A stretch of 64,000 nt of DNA, taken from positions 54,064-118,063 of the forward strand of contig JADFRY010000002.1 of NCBI GenBank assembly GCA_022561055.1, given 5' to 3'. How positions within the stretch are numbered: the first letter of the stretch is position 1; each line of letters starts with the position of its first letter. Under the pieces are notes generated by a model. That model had not been told where the DNA came from. It did not search any database and saw only the letters and a list, made by a program, of their open reading frames with translations. This document shows, piece after piece, positions 40,120 to 47,580 of the stretch. The translations under genes and the position numbers were made by a program. Source of the stretch: Nanobdellota archaeon. GTDB taxonomy: Archaea > Nanobdellota > Nanobdellia > Pacearchaeales > GW2011-AR1.

Positions 40120-40881
40120 ATGGAGAAAGAAATATACTCTCATTCTAAGCTTTGGCTTTTTGAAAACTGTCCTGAGGCTTATAAAATAAAATACATTGAC
40201 AAAAAATTTCCTGAGTTACCGAAGAGTATTGAAGCTTTTTTAGGAGGAATGGTTCATAAAAGTTTGGAATGGCTATATAGAGAGGTAAAAGAAGAGAAAG
40301 AGGTTAACATGGATGATTTAATGAAAAATTTTGCAAATAATTGGATAAGTAATTTCTCTCATGATTTAAGAATTAATTGGGGCAAGTCAGAAGATTATTT
40401 TAATAAGGGAATAAAATTTTTAATTGATTATTATCAGAAGAACAAACCCTTTAATGATAATACAATTGAGATTGAAAAGAAAATTCTTTTTAATTTAGAT
40501 GAAGGTGCTGAATATAAAATTCGAGGATATATTGATAGAATTGTTTTAAATGAAAATGGCGAATATGAGGTGCATGATTATAAAACAAATGATTTTATGA
40601 AAACTCAGGAAGAGGTGGATGCAGATAGACAGCTTGCATTTTATCATTTGGGAATTAATGAACTCTTTGGGCAGCAGGCTAAAATAAAATTAATTTGGCA
40701 TTTTCTCGCCCACAATAAGACAATAGTTTCGAGGAGAAGTCAAGAACAATTAGAGCAGTTAAAAAAAGAAACTTTGGAGCTGATTAAAAAAATTGAAAAT
40801 ACAATAGAGTGGCCGGCGTGTGGAAAAAGATATTGCGATTGGTGCACGTATAAGAGAACTAATAGGATTGAGAATTATTAA
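40120..40881 (+). CDS. PD-(D/E)XK nuclease with Cas4/AddB-like cysteine cluster
   Basis: GYIDRIVLNENGEYEVHDYKT (D...(E/H)xK core), plus one N-terminal Cys (FENCPEAY) and C-terminal CGKRYCDWC. Confidence 0.7.
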   Translation: MEKEIYSHSKLWLFENCPEAYKIKYIDKKFPELPKSIEAFLGGMVHKSLEWLYREVKEEKEVNMDDLMKNFANNWISNFSHDLRINWGKSEDYFNKGIKFLIDYYQKNKPFNDNTIEIEKKILFNLDEGAEYKIRGYIDRIVLNENGEYEVHDYKTNDFMKTQEEVDADRQLAFYHLGINELFGQQAKIKLIWHFLAHNKTIVSRRSQEQLEQLKKETLELIKKIENTIEWPACGKRYCDWCTYKRTNRIENY

Positions 40882-40941
40882 TTGTTAATAAGTATTTTAG
40901 AGGATAATTATATTTAAATCCTGTTAATTGCACAAAACCTT

Positions 40942-42780
40942 ATGAGTCCTGACAGTAATAGAGGATATTGTTTAGTTTCTCAACAAATAAGAGATAAGAT
41001 TGAAAGGGGAGAGATAGTTATAAGAGGAGATTTCTCTAAAGACGAGAGGGGGTGGTTTAAAGATGATGATTTAGAGGGTAGAGTTCAACCCTCATCTTTT
41101 GAACCAATTATTGGAGATGAAGGATTTATTCTTGATACCGAGAGACTTGGAGGTTTCAGACCTCAAAGCAATCAAACTGTTTATAGGGCTTTATTGGAGT
41201 TACCTAGAAGACAGAGACTAAGAGTTAACATGTCTGGGGGGTTTATAGCACAGACTGGTTTTACTTATCTTTTTCCACTTGAAGAAAGAGTTACTCTTAA
41301 AAAAGGAGATAGAATGAAATCTTCTCCAAAAAGTAGCACTGGTAGACTATTCCCAAAAACTAGATTGATAGCAGACTATACTCCTAATTTTGACAGTGTT
41401 AATCATGTTGAAGGTGTTAATGATCCATTACAACTATGGCTTCTATTTCAGCCGACTTCATTTAACATTATTCTATATCCAGGAGATATATTAAACCAAT
41501 TAAGATTTTTTCAAGGTACGAATGCTTCATTAAGCCAGGAGGAAATTATTGAAGAATTTACGAAAAATCCTTTGCTTTATAAAAAAGTAGGAGATGACGA
41601 ACTTGTTCCTACCAAACCTGTAATTACTGATGATGGTTTACAAATAAATCTTGATTTAACTGGACAAAATACATATGGAATTGTAGGTTTACGGGCAAGA
41701 GACAATCCTAAACCTATAGAAATTGGTAAAGAACATGAGTTAGATCCTGAGGAATTTTTTGAACCTGTTACTGTAAAAAGAGGAAAAGTAAGATTTTATG
41801 AGGGAGAAAGATATTTGCTTGCTACTGCTGGTGTAATGAATATTCCCCCTCATCTTTGTGGTGAACTTAGAAGACATTTTGGTCTTGGGCTCAGAGCTGT
41901 TTGGGATGAGGCAGGTTACTTTGATAATGGGTTTAAGGGAAATGGAGTTCTTGAAGCGACTCCTCAAGAAGAAAAAGATATTGAGCTAGATCAAGGTGAT
42001 ACAATTCCATGCAGCGCACTAGAGCTTTTTCGAACTAGTGAAACTCCAGATAAACTTTATGGAACTAAAGAAGCTAAATCTCATTATTACGAACAGCTCG
42101 GACCTAAAGTATCAAAACACTTCAAACCGTTTGATTTTGCTCGTGCAGCAAAAGATTATCAAAAGCTTAATAGAGATGTGTTAGTACATGATGCTAGAGT
42201 ATTAATGAGTTTTAGAGAAGCCCGAGATGGATTTGAACCAATAAGGCCAGAAGTTGCTGAAAGAATTGTTAGAGAAATTGAAAGGAATGGTTTTTTCCAT
42301 TCAAGGTATGACTGTGAAGATGATGAAGAAGTTTTACAACCAATTCCTTATGTTTTGCTTTTTGGCTCCAATGGAACTGTTTTTACTTATGTAAGAGCAA
42401 CTAATATAAGAGATTATGGTGATGAAAGATTATTTGGAAAGTATTCAATTGGATTAGGAGGACATATTATTAGAGCAGACAGACCAAATTTTGTTATAAA
42501 CTGTTTAGAAAGAGAAGTAATAAGGGAAGAAGTTAAAATAGAAGGAGATCATTCTAAACCAAAACTTGTAGGAACTTTAATGGCTTATGATAAACCAGTA
42601 GACAGAGTTCATTTTGGTTTAATTTATACAATACATACTAATGGAAATATAATATCAAATGAGTCATCAATTACTTCTTTTGGAATGATGTCTTTTGATA
42701 AATTAGCTGAGAAGATTGATCCTTTTGAAACATGGAGTAGAGTTTTAGTTCCTCTTCTTCCTGAACTTTACAAGAGATAA
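40942..42780 (+). CDS. fusion protein: DCD-family dCTP deaminase-like N-domain plus YmaB-like Nudix-fold C-domain
   Basis: N-half: VQPSSFEPIIG, SSPKSSTGRLF, LNQLRFFQG (pattern of the roughly 360-aa 2'-deoxycytidine 5'-triphosphate deaminase family). C-half: LQPIPYVLLF...YVRA...GDERLFGKYSIGLGGHI...LEREVIREEV parallels B. subtilis YmaB. Confidence 0.6.
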   Translation: MSPDSNRGYCLVSQQIRDKIERGEIVIRGDFSKDERGWFKDDDLEGRVQPSSFEPIIGDEGFILDTERLGGFRPQSNQTVYRALLELPRRQRLRVNMSGGFIAQTGFTYLFPLEERVTLKKGDRMKSSPKSSTGRLFPKTRLIADYTPNFDSVNHVEGVNDPLQLWLLFQPTSFNIILYPGDILNQLRFFQGTNASLSQEEIIEEFTKNPLLYKKVGDDELVPTKPVITDDGLQINLDLTGQNTYGIVGLRARDNPKPIEIGKEHELDPEEFFEPVTVKRGKVRFYEGERYLLATAGVMNIPPHLCGELRRHFGLGLRAVWDEAGYFDNGFKGNGVLEATPQEEKDIELDQGDTIPCSALELFRTSETPDKLYGTKEAKSHYYEQLGPKVSKHFKPFDFARAAKDYQKLNRDVLVHDARVLMSFREARDGFEPIRPEVAERIVREIERNGFFHSRYDCEDDEEVLQPIPYVLLFGSNGTVFTYVRATNIRDYGDERLFGKYSIGLGGHIIRADRPNFVINCLEREVIREEVKIEGDHSKPKLVGTLMAYDKPVDRVHFGLIYTIHTNGNIISNESSITSFGMMSFDKLAEKIDPFETWSRVLVPLLPELYKR

Positions 42781-42830
42781 GTATTTTCTATTATAATAAT
42801 TTATTTAAAGAACTAACATTAAAATTGAAG

Positions 42831-43874
42831 ATGATAAAAATTGGGGTTACTGGAAAGTTATGTGCTGGAAAAGATACACTAGCTGAATATTTAAAAGAGA
42901 AAGGATTTGAACATATTTCTTTGTCAGATATGATTAGAGAGGAATGTAGAAAAAGAGGGTTAGAAGTGACCTTACAGAATTTAATAAGATTGGGCAATGA
43001 ACTGAGAAAAAAAGAAGGTAGCGATATCTTGGCTAAAATGGCTGTTGAAAAAATGAAGGAAGGAAATAATTATGTGGTGACTAGCATTAGAAATCCCTTG
43101 GAAGTTAAATATCTATCTAATTCTAAGAATTTTGTTCTGATTAATATTGAATCTCCTTTAGAAAAAAGATTTGAAAGAATGATTAAAAGAGGGAAGAAGG
43201 AAAGTGAGCCCAAGAGTCTTGAAGAATTTAAAAGAATTGAAGAGAGCCAATTAAGTTCTACTAATGAGAGTGACCAACAAATTAAAAATTGCATCGATAT
43301 GGCTAGACTGACGATTGTTAATGACGCTGATATAACTCTTTTTTTACAGAAGGTGGAAGAAAATTTTCTAAGAATTAAAGAAATGGCTTCTTTTGTTAGA
43401 CCTGGGTGGGATGAATATTTTGTAGGACTTATGAAGTCTGTTGGAAAAAGGGGAACGTGCGATAGAGGAAGAAGCGGATGTGTTATTGTTAAAGATAAGA
43501 GAATAATGGCTACCGGTTACGTCGGATCCCCGCCTGGACTCGCGCACTGTGATGATGTGGGACATTGGTTCAAGAAAGTGATTCATGAGGATGGGAGTAT
43601 CACTCAACATTGTATAAGAACCGTCCACTCAGAGGCAAATGCTATCGCGCAAGCAGCAAAAAACGGTATAAATATTGAAGGCTCAACTCTTTATTGTAAA
43701 CTAGAACCTTGCCTGGATTGCACAAAATTATTGATTAGCGCTGGAATAAAAAGAATCATCGCCGAAAAGAAATATCATGCATCGAAAGAATCTAGAGAGA
43801 TGTTAGAAGAAGCAGGGGTGGCATTAGAAGTTTTGGATGATGAGTTTGAGGGGTACGAAAGTGACGACAGCTAG
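42831..43874 (+). CDS. fusion protein: P-loop nucleotide-kinase-like N-domain plus dCMP/CMP-type zinc deaminase C-domain
   Basis: GVTGKLCAGKDT (Walker A), then HSEANAI and EPCLDCTKLL (HxE / PCxxC deaminase zinc motifs). TATA lies 25.5 nt upstream of ATG 42831. Confidence 0.75.
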   Translation: MIKIGVTGKLCAGKDTLAEYLKEKGFEHISLSDMIREECRKRGLEVTLQNLIRLGNELRKKEGSDILAKMAVEKMKEGNNYVVTSIRNPLEVKYLSNSKNFVLINIESPLEKRFERMIKRGKKESEPKSLEEFKRIEESQLSSTNESDQQIKNCIDMARLTIVNDADITLFLQKVEENFLRIKEMASFVRPGWDEYFVGLMKSVGKRGTCDRGRSGCVIVKDKRIMATGYVGSPPGLAHCDDVGHWFKKVIHEDGSITQHCIRTVHSEANAIAQAAKNGINIEGSTLYCKLEPCLDCTKLLISAGIKRIIAEKKYHASKESREMLEEAGVALEVLDDEFEGYESDDS

Positions 43875-43964
43875 CATAACCGAACTTTTATTTATAAATG
43901 GTTCGGATTTGTGTTGTGCGGAATATAAAACTTTAAATACCAATAAATTTTGTATAGCTTGTTA

Positions 43965-43980
43965 ACACAAGCTATTGTAT
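43965..43980 (+). promoter_or_regulatory. NrdR box 1 (ACACAAGCTATTGTAT)
   Basis: 13 of 16 matches to the 16-bp NrdR-box palindrome (approx acaCwAtATaTwGtgt). It sits upstream of nrdR. Confidence 0.5.
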
Positions 43981-43995
43981 TGTCGTCACAAAAAA

Positions 43996-44011
43996 ACACA
44001 ATATATTGTAG
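43996..44011 (+). promoter_or_regulatory. NrdR box 2 (ACACAATATATTGTAG)
   Basis: 14 of 16 matches to the NrdR-box consensus. Centre-to-centre spacing to box 1 is 31 bp, as in bacterial tandem boxes. It overlaps an AT-rich TATA-like core. Confidence 0.55.
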
Positions 44012-44045
44012 TGCTGTCGTAATTCAAAAGTTAAAAAGAGGTTAT

Positions 44046-44489
44046 ATGTTATGTCCATTTTGCTCTCATTCAGAAACAAAGGTTACAGATAAAAGGGATG
44101 CTGGCAGAATTACGAGAAGAAGAAGAGAGTGCTTAAAGTGTAGCAAGAGATTTTCCACGCATGAAAAGGTAGAGTGGAGCGAAATAAAAGTTATAAAGAA
44201 AGACGGAAAGAGAGAACCGTTCAGCCGAGAGAAAATTAAAATAGGCTTTATGAAGGCGTGTGAAAAAAGGCCTGTAAATGAGGAAAGAATTGAAAAGATG
44301 CTAAACTTTATTGAGGAAAAAGTGAGGAAGAGAGGAAAAGAGATTAATACGAGTGTTATTGGCGATTTGGTTTCTAAAGAATTAAAAAAAGTTGATAAGG
44401 TTGCATACATAAGATTTGCTTCTGTTTATATGGATTTCACAGATATTTCAGATTTTAAAAAAGAAGTAAGGGGGCTGTTGAAGAAATAA
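44046..44489 (+). CDS. nrdR: transcriptional repressor NrdR (zinc ribbon plus ATP-cone)
   Basis: MLCPFCSHSETKVTDKRD...RRRRECLKCSKRFSTHE plus an ATP-cone. The upstream extension to 43950 in the ORF track covers the NrdR boxes and is not credible. Confidence 0.9.
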   Translation: MLCPFCSHSETKVTDKRDAGRITRRRRECLKCSKRFSTHEKVEWSEIKVIKKDGKREPFSREKIKIGFMKACEKRPVNEERIEKMLNFIEEKVRKRGKEINTSVIGDLVSKELKKVDKVAYIRFASVYMDFTDISDFKKEVRGLLKK

Positions 44490-44697: not shown

Positions 44698-47580
44698 ATG
44701 GCTGATATAAAAAAAGTAGAGGTTGATACCAATTCTCTAGATGGACTCGGTAGTGGTTTGGAACAAAAAGGTGTTGTGGGTGGCTTGCCAGAGTCAGACA
44801 CTGGATTAAAAATAGCAAGATATTTCACTAAACAGGGAATGAGTCCTTTTAATTTTGATGTAGAAAGAAAACCAATAAATTGGGTTTCTGAAGAAGTACA
44901 ATTTACTGATGATATGGGAAAAGTTATTTATACACAACCAAGTGTTAAGAAACCTGACTTCTGGAGCCCCCTGGCATTGAAAGTTGTGGCTAGTAGATAT
45001 TTCTGGGGTAATCAACAAAAAGGGGAGAGAGAAGATTCTGTAGAAAAATTGATTGATAGGGTTTCTAGGTTTTTTGAAAGGCAGGCATTAAAACAGAAAT
45101 ACTTTAATGAAGAAGAATCAAGAATCCTAAGAGATGAGATTGCTGCAATAACATTAAATCAATTATGCGTTTTCAATAGCCCAGTGTGGTTTAATGTTGG
45201 TATTCAGAAATATGATATTATAGCTGGAGGGGTTGCTCCTTGGAAATGGGATTCTGAAAAGGGAGAGGTTGTTGAATCAGAAAAAAATGAAGATAGACCA
45301 CAATGTTCAGCTTGTTTCATTCAAAGCATGGAAGATAATATGGACTCTATTATGGAAGTCCAGACAGCTGAAGCCATGTTATTTAAAGGCGGTTCTGGAA
45401 CAGGTTCAAACAGGTCTAATCTGAGAAGTTCTAAAGAAAGGCTTACGGGAGGAGGGATTTCTTCTGGTCCTGTGAGCTTTATGAGAGGTTATGATGCATA
45501 TGCTGGTGTTATCAAGTCAGGAGGTAAAACAAGAAGAGCAGCAAAAATGGAAATCTTAAATATGAACCATCCTGATATTATGGAGTTCATTGAAGCAAAA
45601 CAAAAAGAAGAGAAAAAAGCATGGGCTTTAATTGATGCAGGTTATGGTGGTGGCTTAAATGGGGAAGCATATAATAGTATCTCTTTCCAGAACAGTAATA
45701 TGAGTGCCAGGGCTTCTGATGAATTTATGGAGGCTATAAAAAAAGATGGTGACTGGCAGACTAAATATGTTTTAACAGGAGAAGTTTGTGAAACTTTAAA
45801 AGCTAAAGAAATGTTAAAGAAAATTGCTGAAGGGACTCATATTTGTGGGGACCCAGGCATGCAGTTTGATACAATAATCAATAAATATCATACTTGTAAG
45901 AACTCTGGAAGGATAAATGCTTCTAATCCTTGTTCGGAGTATATGTTTTTAGATGATACTGCATGTAACCTTGCTTCTCTCAATTTAATGAAATTTAGAA
46001 CAGAAGATGAAAAATTTGATGTGGAGAAGTTTAGAAAAGCTGTGAAGTTCTTTATTATTACAATGGAGCTCATTATTGATGGTGCTTCTTATCCTACCAA
46101 AAAAATAACACAGAGGTCACATGATTTTAGGACTCTTGGCTTGGGATATGCTAATCTTGGAGCTTTACTTATGTCTTTTGGTCTGCCTTATGATTCTGAT
46201 TCTGGCAGAGCTGTTGCTGCAGCAATAACTGCAATAATGTGTGGAGAGGCTTACAAAATTTCTGCACAATTAGCTTCTTTGGTTGGTACTTTTCCGAGAT
46301 ATGAAGAAAATAAAGAACCCATGTTAAAAGTTATGGAAATGCACCGAGACCATGTTAAAGATATAGAAGTTAATAAAATGCCTTCTGATTTGAGATATTT
46401 GGTTAATGATTCCTGGGATTCATGGAGTGAGGCTGTAAAATTAGGAGAAAAATATGGCTATAGAAATGCTCAAACAACTGTTATTGCTCCTACTGGAACA
46501 ATTGCATTCATGATGGATTGTGATACAACAGGAATTGAACCTGACATTGCATTAGTTAAGTACAAAGTTCTTGCTGGGGGAGGCATGTTAAAGATAGTAA
46601 ACAAAAGCGTGCCTTTGGCTTTGAGGGGTTTGGGTTATAATGAAGAACAAATAAAAGAGATTATTGATTATATTGACAAAAATGATATGATTGAGGGGAC
46701 TCCGCATTTGAAAGAAGATCATCTTGCGATTTTTGATTGTGCTTTCAAGCCTGCTAATGGTAAAAGGGCAATACAGTATAAAGCCCATATTAAGATGATG
46801 GGAGCATGTCAGCCTTTTGTTTCTGGAGCAATAAGCAAGACGATTAATATGCCTGAGCAATCAACAATTGATGAAATTGCCGATGCATATATTTTCTCTT
46901 GGGAACAGGGATTAAAATCTGTGGCAATTTATAGAGAAAACAGCAAGAGAAGCCAGCCTCTGAATACGCAGAAAACAGAAGGCGAGATGATAAGAAAAGA
47001 TGCAAAGATCCAAATGTCTCAGATGAGAATAAAACTTCCTCAAACAAGAAAATCCATAACTCACAAGTTTGACATTGGGGGACATGAGGGATACTTGACA
47101 GTTGGCTTATATGACGAAGGAAAACCTGGAGAGATTTTTATTACGATGCATAAGACTGGTTCTACAATCAGAGGCTTAATGGATGCGTGGGCAAATTCTA
47201 TTTCATTTAATTTACAATACGGGATTCCAGTCGAGTTTTTATTTAAGAAATTCAGACATCAGAAGTTTGAGCCTTCTGGATTTGTGAAGAACGTTAATGG
47301 AGGAAAACTGGATGAGAAAGGAAATAAGATAAAAACAGCATCGTCAATAGTTGATTATGTTGCACAGTTTATGCTAAATAACTTTGGTGAAGGCTCTGGT
47401 AATATAGAGTTTGAAGTTGAAACTTTGGGAAATCTAAAAGATGAGCAGAAAGCATTGGATGACTTCGGCGATGAAGGACTTATTTGTCCTTTGTGTGGAG
47501 GGACTGCAAAACGACTTGGAAATTGCACTATGATTTGCAATTCCTGTAAGCAGAAGACAACTGGTGGTTGTGGTGAGTGA
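44698..47580 (+). CDS. nrdJ: class II (adenosylcobalamin-dependent) ribonucleotide reductase
   Basis: NPCSEYMFLDDTACNLASLNL (active-site Cys/Glu block), TVIAPTGTI block, C-terminal CPLCGG...CNSC zinc-ribbon tail. Confidence 0.85.
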   Translation: MADIKKVEVDTNSLDGLGSGLEQKGVVGGLPESDTGLKIARYFTKQGMSPFNFDVERKPINWVSEEVQFTDDMGKVIYTQPSVKKPDFWSPLALKVVASRYFWGNQQKGEREDSVEKLIDRVSRFFERQALKQKYFNEEESRILRDEIAAITLNQLCVFNSPVWFNVGIQKYDIIAGGVAPWKWDSEKGEVVESEKNEDRPQCSACFIQSMEDNMDSIMEVQTAEAMLFKGGSGTGSNRSNLRSSKERLTGGGISSGPVSFMRGYDAYAGVIKSGGKTRRAAKMEILNMNHPDIMEFIEAKQKEEKKAWALIDAGYGGGLNGEAYNSISFQNSNMSARASDEFMEAIKKDGDWQTKYVLTGEVCETLKAKEMLKKIAEGTHICGDPGMQFDTIINKYHTCKNSGRINASNPCSEYMFLDDTACNLASLNLMKFRTEDEKFDVEKFRKAVKFFIITMELIIDGASYPTKKITQRSHDFRTLGLGYANLGALLMSFGLPYDSDSGRAVAAAITAIMCGEAYKISAQLASLVGTFPRYEENKEPMLKVMEMHRDHVKDIEVNKMPSDLRYLVNDSWDSWSEAVKLGEKYGYRNAQTTVIAPTGTIAFMMDCDTTGIEPDIALVKYKVLAGGGMLKIVNKSVPLALRGLGYNEEQIKEIIDYIDKNDMIEGTPHLKEDHLAIFDCAFKPANGKRAIQYKAHIKMMGACQPFVSGAISKTINMPEQSTIDEIADAYIFSWEQGLKSVAIYRENSKRSQPLNTQKTEGEMIRKDAKIQMSQMRIKLPQTRKSITHKFDIGGHEGYLTVGLYDEGKPGEIFITMHKTGSTIRGLMDAWANSISFNLQYGIPVEFLFKKFRHQKFEPSGFVKNVNGGKLDEKGNKIKTASSIVDYVAQFMLNNFGEGSGNIEFEVETLGNLKDEQKALDDFGDEGLICPLCGGTAKRLGNCTMICNSCKQKTTGGCGE

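Follow-up and report, generated by a model that had tools for sequence, protein, structure and literature searches.

A two-lobed dCTP deaminase fused to a COG4112/TM1382-type Nudix domain in DPANN archaea, a candidate single-chain route from dCTP to dUMP

Every DNA-based cell needs dUMP for thymidylate and has to keep dUTP out of its DNA, a task for which cells are known to use Dut, bifunctional DCD-DUT, dimeric or MazG-type dUTPases or dCMP deaminase. Could a single polypeptide built from two other enzymes serve the same end? The question is raised by a 64,000-nucleotide stretch of DNA from a Nanobdellota archaeon (assembly GCA_022561055.1, contig JADFRY010000002.1, positions 54,064 to 118,063, hereafter the window), in which one gene at 40942-42780 joins a dCTP deaminase (DCD) to a Nudix-fold domain. 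An earlier reading of the DNA letters without database searches (the sequence-only reading) had proposed that this polypeptide could channel dCTP through dUTP to dUMP. We consider a single-chain two-enzyme route dCTP -> dUTP -> dUMP, replacing separate Dcd and Dut, to be the probable function of the protein, and put the probability of this predicted role at roughly 0.6. The gene is an open reading frame with an ATG start and 612 codons that spans exactly these coordinates, and the following features were delimited within it:

40942-42780, plus strand: whole gene, DCD-COG4112/TM1382-type Nudix fusion (open reading frame and translation, 612 amino acids (aa))
40963-41556, plus strand: DCD lobe 1, residues ~8-205, Pfam DCD_N (PF06559, residues 45-192, 6.7e-18, 65.5 bits against a cut-off of 21.4; 2R9Q alignment)
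41329-41346, plus strand: motif II of lobe 1, K130-S131-S132-T-G134-R135, equal to KSSxGR of canonical Dcd
41557-42132, plus strand: DCD lobe 2, residues 206-397, Pfam DCD_C (PF22569, residues 220-394, 1.9e-17, 63.6 bits against a cut-off of 22; 2QXX alignment)
41911-41955, plus strand: motif III and deaminase Glu of lobe 2, A324-G325-Y-F-D328-N-G-F331-K-G-N-G-V-L-E338 (2QXX alignment)
42058-42117, plus strand: C-terminal deaminase lid, Y373-G374...Y382..Q385.G387...K392 (aligns to the 2R9Q and 2QXX lids)
42154-42777, plus strand: COG4112/TM1382-type Nudix-fold domain, residues ~405-612 (3E57 match, Foldseek, family motifs)
42457-42546, plus strand: modified Nudix box, G506-G507-H508-x4-D513-x10-R524-E525-V-I-R528-E529-E530-x4-G535 (family alignment)

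The general Pfam DCD model (PF22769) matched the protein in two stretches (2.8e-22, 79.9 bits against a cut-off of 27), and the NCBIfam model NF005734 for long-form dCTP deaminase gave 129.2 bits, below its equivalog cut-off of 283 bits; judged by its sequence, the deaminase part is a divergent relative of long-form DCD and no equivalog. Among PDB sequences the two-lobed Agrobacterium tumefaciens protein 2R9Q matched residues 28-395 (1.7e-26), the Mycobacterium tuberculosis DCD-DUT 2QXX matched residues 285-397, with its own residues 74-186 aligned to lobe 2, and TM1382 (3E57) matched residues 429-609, about 180 residues (E=1.1e-11 to 2.3e-12). It was the bifunctional mycobacterial enzyme to which lobe 2 aligned best (HMMER). 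An AlphaFold2 model made with 57 homologues as input reached a pLDDT of 92.5 and a pTM of 0.85, and Foldseek matched this model to 2R9Q (TM 0.87-0.89) and 3E57 (TM 0.88), followed by canonical Dcd and DCD-DUT structures and by the Nudix enzymes YfaO/NudI (3OGA, TM 0.80; 6DT3), MutT and DR0079. In the model the deaminase lid passes into the Nudix domain with essentially no linker, a conserved beta-strand begins at about residue 412 and no low-confidence linker is seen. Profile-profile alignment of lobe 1 with lobe 2 (hhalign) gave only a weak match over 24 columns with a probability of 0.5%, so that the correspondence of the lobes rests on Pfam, 2R9Q and the motif patterns.

The sequence-only reading had assigned residues 1 to about 400 to the DCD family, which Pfam, 2R9Q and the fold bear out; however, it saw a single domain there, and this part consists of two dUTPase-fold lobes in tandem (~8-205 and 206-397). 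Its Nudix-fold C-terminal domain is likewise supported by the 3E57 sequence match and by Foldseek, but begins at about residue 405 and not at about 420. The motifs it quoted are all present, VQPSSFEPIIG at residues 48-58, PKSSTGRLF at 129-137 and QLRFFQG at 186-192 in the first part, QPIPYVLLF at 466-474, GDERLFGKYSIGLGGHI at 493-509 and LEREVIREEV at 522-531 in the second, and the structure prediction that it had suggested gave both halves the expected folds (AlphaFold2, with Foldseek matches 2R9Q and 3E57). Catalytic residues, whose loss from both halves it had named as speaking against the proposal, are conserved in both.

Conservation was judged in alignments of 57-120 homologues, and the catalytic positions were checked in 46 readable fusion proteins. 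In E. coli Dcd the catalytic residues are S111/R115 of motif II and D128/E138, the motif III aspartate and the deaminase glutamate. Motif II of the fusion lies in lobe 1, where S131, G134 and R135 are invariant and the pattern equals M. tuberculosis K101, S102 and R106, a mapping taken from the 2QXX alignment of lobe 2 together with the identity of the pattern. Motif III lies in lobe 2, where A324, G325, D328, F331 and E338 are invariant; D328 aligns to mycobacterial D119 and E338 to the deaminase glutamate E129, with the same +10 spacing (HMMER alignment). Lobe 2 itself is without the Ser/Arg motif and reads R311-H-F-G-L-G there, placing H312 and G316 at the positions of mycobacterial S102 and R106. 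Lobe 1 has Leu168, conserved in at least 90%, at the position of the deaminase glutamate (WLLFQP, compared with YLEISP in 2R9Q, which keeps the Glu). Invariant or nearly so are Q49, S52, K130-S131-S132-x-G134-R135, R141, D145, Q170 and Q186 in lobe 1, A324-G325, D328, F331, E338 and E343 in lobe 2, and Y373-G374, Y382, Q385 and G387 in the lid, and six of these (S131, R135, D328, E338, Y373, Q385) are identical in 46 of the 46 readable fusion proteins. In trimeric dUTPase-fold enzymes complementary motif halves are contributed by neighbouring subunits; since the two lobes of the fusion hold such complementary halves, we infer by analogy that each chain would form one composite active site.

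In the C-terminal domain R524 is invariant, and D513, E525, E529 and E530 are conserved in at least 90% of the family alignment. The spacer of the Nudix box is longer than in the consensus GX5EX7REUXEEXGU, as it is in TM1382. The domain has further motifs in common with TM1382 and with standalone relatives from archaea and bacteria (R.(D/A)E.D...Q.IPY, RL.GK.S.G.GGH, RE..EE, VH.G and ETWS), and 16 columns do not vary among COG4112 members, whether fused or standalone, archaeal or bacterial; relatives carry the JGI label 'predicted NUDIX family phosphoesterase'. By sequence, motifs and fold the domain belongs to the TM1382/COG4112 Nudix family. We take B. subtilis YmaB to be assigned to COG4112 as well, and the putative YmaB kinship of the domain rests on that assignment.

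The fusion is widespread. At least 1,154 relatives were found in a collection of 5.8 billion proteins; each of the best 120 is a full-length fusion (552-765 aa, 46-61% identity), and this set comes from Pace-, Woese- and Nanoarchaeota and is named '2'-deoxycytidine 5'-triphosphate deaminase' by NCBI and 'dCTP deaminase / predicted NUDIX family phosphoesterase' by JGI; both halves of the fusion are already annotated in databases. In one genome per GTDB species the C-terminal domain has 451 relatives, and 57 of the best 80 are full-length fusions, all on DPANN-type contigs; the recurrence in related lineages that the sequence-only reading had asked about is common among DPANN archaea. Of 201 genomes sampled evenly from the phylum, 8 had the fusion, 23 standalone COG4112 and at least 29 an unfused two-lobed DCD. 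In a quick tree of the C-terminal domain, 46 of 47 fused copies fell into one clade, and the copy of the divergent fusion L063 was placed among standalone copies. A second independent DPANN fusion was considered and dropped: a tree constrained to keep the 47 fused domains together had the higher likelihood and was not rejected by the approximately unbiased (AU) test (p-AU 0.77), which is compatible with one origin of the DPANN fusion. Two proteins of 765 and 764 aa (P0029 and P0039) are triple fusions DCD_N-DCD_C-COG4112-NDK, with NDK at about 623-761. Seven fusion contigs (L018, L025, L037, L044, L062, L063 and L009) are labelled 'uncultured Methanosarcinales', 'Methanobacteriota', 'Euryarchaeota' or 'bacterium'; these non-DPANN names are probably automatic labels of metagenome-assembled genomes and no true wider distribution.

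In the archaeon's own genome (0.93 Mb) the two fusion lobes are the only DCD-superfamily (PF22769) matches, and profile searches of this 86% complete genome found no PF00692 dUTPase, no MazG and no dimeric dUTPase; ThyX, Tmk and ribonucleotide reductase (RNR) are encoded. A thymidylate cluster lies outside the window on contig C9 (6262-11410):

C9 6262-6735: canonical Nudix gene
C9 8231-8851: standalone COG4112 paralogue, 33% identical to the fused domain, with a canonical RELKEE box
C9 8837-10675, minus strand: open reading frame of 612 aa with two tandem ThyX domains, tail-to-tail with the paralogue (15-bp overlap)
C9 10775-11410: tmk, divergent from the tandem ThyX gene

A PF00692 match was found in 156 of the 201 genomes of the phylum sample, but in only 2 of the 8 with the fusion. 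Dut was absent from 35 of 50 further fusion genomes, a set unfiltered for completeness, compared with 39 of 193 genomes of the phylum that do not carry the fusion (Fisher 7e-11; this and the other Fisher tests ignore phylogeny). Because the presence of Dut switches at least 13 times on the fusion tree, the pattern of Dut absence stems from more than one clade. The replacement of separate Dcd and Dut that the sequence-only reading envisaged fits these genomes. COG4112 in any form also anticorrelates with Dut, which is present in 14 of 31 genomes with it and in 142 of 170 without (Fisher 1.6e-5). Among 26 genomes devoid of any DCD/Dut superfamily member, 10 carry standalone COG4112, and these encode RNR in 10 of 10 and ThyX in 8 of 10 cases. 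In 3 of the 46 readable fusions the Nudix box is degenerate while the DCD residues are intact:

L008, 8001-9806: fusion gene with box RQ..K
L051, 8001-9794: fusion gene with box RDKVLGD
L062, 8001-9800: fusion gene with box KDTINKE

All three of these genomes have Dut, which accompanies an intact box in 11 of 43 cases (Fisher 0.022); in a paired test, just 2-3 phylogenetically independent pairs were available, all in the expected direction and without significance.

The same two enzyme families are also joined in the reverse order:

L085, 7959-11575: reversed fusion of COG4112 Nudix with canonical single-lobe Dcd (421 aa), with tmk and tandem thyX

In this protein the COG4112 domain comes first (residues ~15-205, canonical REFAEE box) and is followed by a canonical Dcd (PF22769 129.5 bits, KSSLARLG and FDPGW...LEL); the gene overlaps tmk, and a tandem thyX follows in this tmk-thyX operon. 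Proteins of this type, named 'dCTP deaminase', form more than 120 clusters (64-95% identity, full coverage) that collapse to one cluster at 50% identity, and their hosts are Candidatus Curtissbacteria, Blackburnbacteria and other Patescibacteria, the contig of L085 itself being labelled Gammaproteobacteria. The same quick tree, which has SH-aLRT support only, placed the L085 Nudix copy outside the clade of fused DPANN copies. Because domain order, deaminase type and position in the Nudix tree all differ from the DPANN fusion, the sequences indicate that this is a second, independent fusion of the two families, here in bacteria of the candidate phyla radiation (CPR). No other comparative argument speaks, in our view, as strongly for a Nudix domain that would act on the product of the deaminase. 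Other partners were seen as well (P0425, P0371 and P0476), namely COG4112 with a full transketolase (848 aa) and canonical Dcd with MtrA-like and pterin-binding DUF4346 domains (508 and 355 aa).

In the route that we propose, dCDP, or dCTP from the class II RNR, would with NDK supply the dCTP. The composite site of the pseudo-dimeric DCD part, with the phosphate-binding Ser/Arg from lobe 1 and the sugar/base motif, Glu338 and the lid from lobe 2, would deaminate dCTP to dUTP, the tethered COG4112/TM1382-type domain would hydrolyse dUTP to dUMP and PPi, and dUMP would pass to ThyX and then Tmk, toward dTTP. The Nudix step would also keep dUTP low in a cell without Dut. The preliminary dNTP pyrophosphohydrolase activity reported for YmaB (PMC5960316) speaks for the route. 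Architecture, fold, conserved catalytic residues, gene neighbourhood, phyletic pattern and the independent fusion are what the analysis shows; the substrate, the reaction order, the single composite site and any channelling are what we infer. If the route is real, the fusion would be a further solution to the dUMP problem, made from two unrelated folds and used by many ultra-small archaea, with a reversed form in CPR bacteria without Dut; it would fill a gap in metabolic reconstructions of DPANN and CPR lineages and give long-form DCD (2R9Q) and COG4112 (3E57, YmaB) a first concrete, testable function. More tentatively, and with the balance slightly against it, one may see in COG4112/TM1382/YmaB a distinct and widespread class of dUTP pyrophosphatase that displaces the unrelated Dut and was fused to deaminases at least twice (DPANN, CPR), giving a two-site dCTP-to-dUMP machine with the lid tethered to the Nudix domain. 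Such a class would explain why ymaB belongs to the Bacillus nrd operon.

A number of findings weigh against this two-enzyme route. Beside the phylogeny-blind tests, the unfiltered genome set and the few independent pairs given above, these are the 86% completeness of the archaeon's own genome, which qualifies every absence in it, and the presence of Dut in 15 of the 50 further fusion genomes. RNR is encoded in 15 of 16 near-complete DPANN genomes without Dut, DCD and COG4112, so that COG4112 is not the sole way to live without Dut, and the stricter idea that it is required wherever Dut is absent was rejected. No NrdR box was found ahead of position 40942 in a scan of the window with up to 3 mismatches. 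Literature searches gave no enzymology for two-lobed DCD, TM1382 or the fusion, and TM1382 is listed as 'undetermined' in a survey of the Nudix clan (PMC5389931). Of the profile checks that the sequence-only reading had suggested, Pfam DCD was positive, but Pfam NUDIX (PF00293) remained under threshold on the fusion protein; the same profile was passed by the standalone paralogue of the genome (36.4 bits) and by the fusion homologue P0044 (25.9 bits). In the canonical register the i+3 glutamate of the Nudix box is replaced by Arg (REVIREEV), with RE and the i+4 Glu kept; other fusion proteins have the canonical RELxEEV or REVxEEEV (REUxEE). As a separate observation, genomes without DCD, Dut and COG4112 include G001, G003, G016, G028 and G037.

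A more direct objection concerns the deaminase part. Archaeal and mycobacterial single-lobe DCDs are bifunctional DCD-DUT enzymes, and because of this precedent the deaminase part of the fusion might make dUMP by itself. Moreover, of 29 genomes whose two-lobed DCD is unfused (at least 29 such genomes were found), 10 are without Dut, so that, on this pattern, the DCD part may have some dUTPase activity of its own. The two-lobed DCD would then be bifunctional and the Nudix domain would do another job in the dNTP pool, on dATP or other dNTPs or on non-canonical pyrimidine dNTPs, an explanation that we regard as unlikely. The best alignment of lobe 2 with bifunctional 2QXX and the third or so of unfused two-lobed DCD genomes that have no Dut agree with it. 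Another Nudix job would also suit the standalone COG4112 genes directly beside RNR genes (G076, G106, G086; others adjoin ThyX in G055 and Dut in G068), and for YmaB a preliminary dNTP pyrophosphohydrolase activity and a speculated dATP -> dAMP role with NrdE have been described (PMC5960316). Yet the Nudix box decays only where Dut is present, Dut absence is stronger with the fused form (6 of 8, 35 of 50) than with the unfused two-lobed DCD (10 of 29), and the joining of this domain to dCTP deaminases on two independent occasions suggests reactions in series, the Nudix domain taking what the deaminase makes; furthermore, NDK on the same chain would render a broad-specificity dNTPase futile.

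The failed Pfam NUDIX match and the Arg in REVIREEV bear on another explanation, according to which the Nudix-fold domain is non-catalytic and serves as a module for nucleotide sensing or oligomerisation through which the deaminase is regulated, for instance by dTTP or dUTP feedback. L051 and L062, which have lost the box yet retain the domain, would also suit such a module. We consider it improbable, as R524, E525, E529, E530 and D513 are conserved in at least 90%, many members have a fully canonical REUxEE, and few proteins (3 of 46), all from genomes containing Dut, have lost the box; in addition, the replaced i+3 position is presumably the least critical of the three MutT glutamates in mutagenesis. 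It is still less probable that the DCD-like part has no deaminase activity and acts as a dUTPase or another (d)NTP pyrophosphatase: its fold is common with dUTPases and the two-lobed family is known from sequence and structure and not from assays, but the deaminase-specific E338 is invariant exactly 10 residues past the motif III Asp, and so is the Ser/Arg pair typical of Dcd.

Several known systems resemble the fusion in part. The long-form DCD 2R9Q, to our knowledge a structural-genomics entry without published biochemistry, has the same two dUTPase-fold lobes in tandem, with KSSTGR in lobe 1 and Asp...Glu plus lid in lobe 2; it keeps the lobe 1 Glu that the fusion has lost, and the fusion has an extra Nudix domain of 210 aa. 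With DCD-DUT (M. jannaschii 1OGH, M. tuberculosis 2QXX) the fusion has in common the fold, the catalytic Ser, Arg, Asp and Glu, the proposed net reaction dCTP -> dUMP + NH3 + PPi and, if the proposal holds, a supply of dUMP without free dUTP. However, DCD-DUT enzymes are single-lobe homotrimers that perform both steps in one site, whereas the second step of the fusion is proposed to take place in an unrelated Nudix domain; with its two-lobed chain and Nudix architecture the fusion is no member of the DCD-DUT family. TM1382 (3E57) and COG4112 resemble it in the alignment of residues 429-609, the family motifs and a link to RNR genes, as YmaB is encoded in the B. subtilis operon nrdI-nrdE-nrdF-ymaB, and differ in that the fused domain is joined to a deaminase and has Arg at one Nudix-box Glu position. 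The monomeric two-domain dUTPases of herpesviruses (e.g. Epstein-Barr virus), an analogy drawn from general knowledge, likewise have a duplicated fold with partial motifs in each half and one site between them, but no deaminase Glu, and their sequence is unrelated. NudI/YfaO of enterobacteria, a structural neighbour of the C-terminal domain, is a Nudix enzyme hydrolysing dUTP, dTTP and dCTP; it belongs to a different Nudix subfamily, stands alone and has no Dcd link. Literature searches yielded no paper describing the DCD-Nudix fusion.

In the window the gene order is PD-(D/E)XK nuclease, fusion, kinase-dCMP-type deaminase, NrdR, NrdJ and phosphoribosyltransferase. The sequence-only reading had placed the fusion two genes upstream of nrdR-nrdJ; the upstream position stands, but just one gene, the kinase-dCMP deaminase, lies between the fusion and nrdR. 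The neighbours are as follows:

40120-40881, plus strand: PD-(D/E)XK nuclease (PF12705, 4.2e-28)
42825-43874, plus strand: P-loop kinase-like domain fused to a zinc dCMP/CMP-type deaminase (PF00383, 5.1e-22; AAA_18, 5.3e-14)
44046-44489, plus strand: NrdR, Zn ribbon and ATP-cone (PF22811, PF03477)
44698-47580, plus strand: class II (B12) ribonucleotide reductase NrdJ (PF02867, 1.8e-137; PF08471)

A dNTP-synthesis gene stands within 8 kb in 21 of 57 related loci, in varied orders and orientations: NrdR and/or NrdJ in 15, the kinase-dCMP deaminase in 7 and ThyX and/or Tmk in 3. In the case of the divergent fusion L063, the neighbours are the kinase-deaminase on one side and tmk on the other. The downstream gene has an AAA_18/AAA_17 kinase part with a weak (d)CMP kinase match, and scored 117 bits with ComEB (cut-off 219) and 109 bits with an 'anti-phage dCTP deaminase' model (cut-off 400); because it stands beside the fusion in 7 of the 57 loci, it looks like a housekeeping partner. 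The upstream nuclease is close to the fusion in just 1 of 57 loci and is no conserved partner. Although this nuclease and the weak resemblance of the kinase-deaminase to the anti-phage model could hint at an antiviral dNTP-depletion effector related to defence dCTP deaminases, we dismiss such a role, because PADLOC gave no meaningful match among its defence models (only DrmA, E=0.022, noise), the nuclease neighbour is not conserved, and the fusion is the sole DCD/Dut-superfamily gene of a 0.93-Mb genome and linked to NrdR, NrdJ, ThyX or Tmk in many genomes.

The mechanical open reading frame of NrdR (43950-44489) starts with TTG at 43950, and its Zn ribbon begins at residue 33 (ATG 44046). The real NrdR start has two NrdR-box-like palindromes upstream of it (43965 and 43996), the only two in the scan of the window, and NrdR control of the fusion gene was rejected. 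An AT-rich TATA-like element, ttatattt at about 40908-40915, was noted in the region 40900-40941. As it stands about 30 nt before the fusion ATG, it suggests that the fusion gene may have its own promoter, in which case co-transcription with the upstream nuclease would not be obligatory. In relatives, matches to the RNR barrel are divided over open frames 1309-2116 aa long (G033:C22:19632-23717, G090:C3 and G068:C16), which suggests that their class II RNR genes contain putative inteins.

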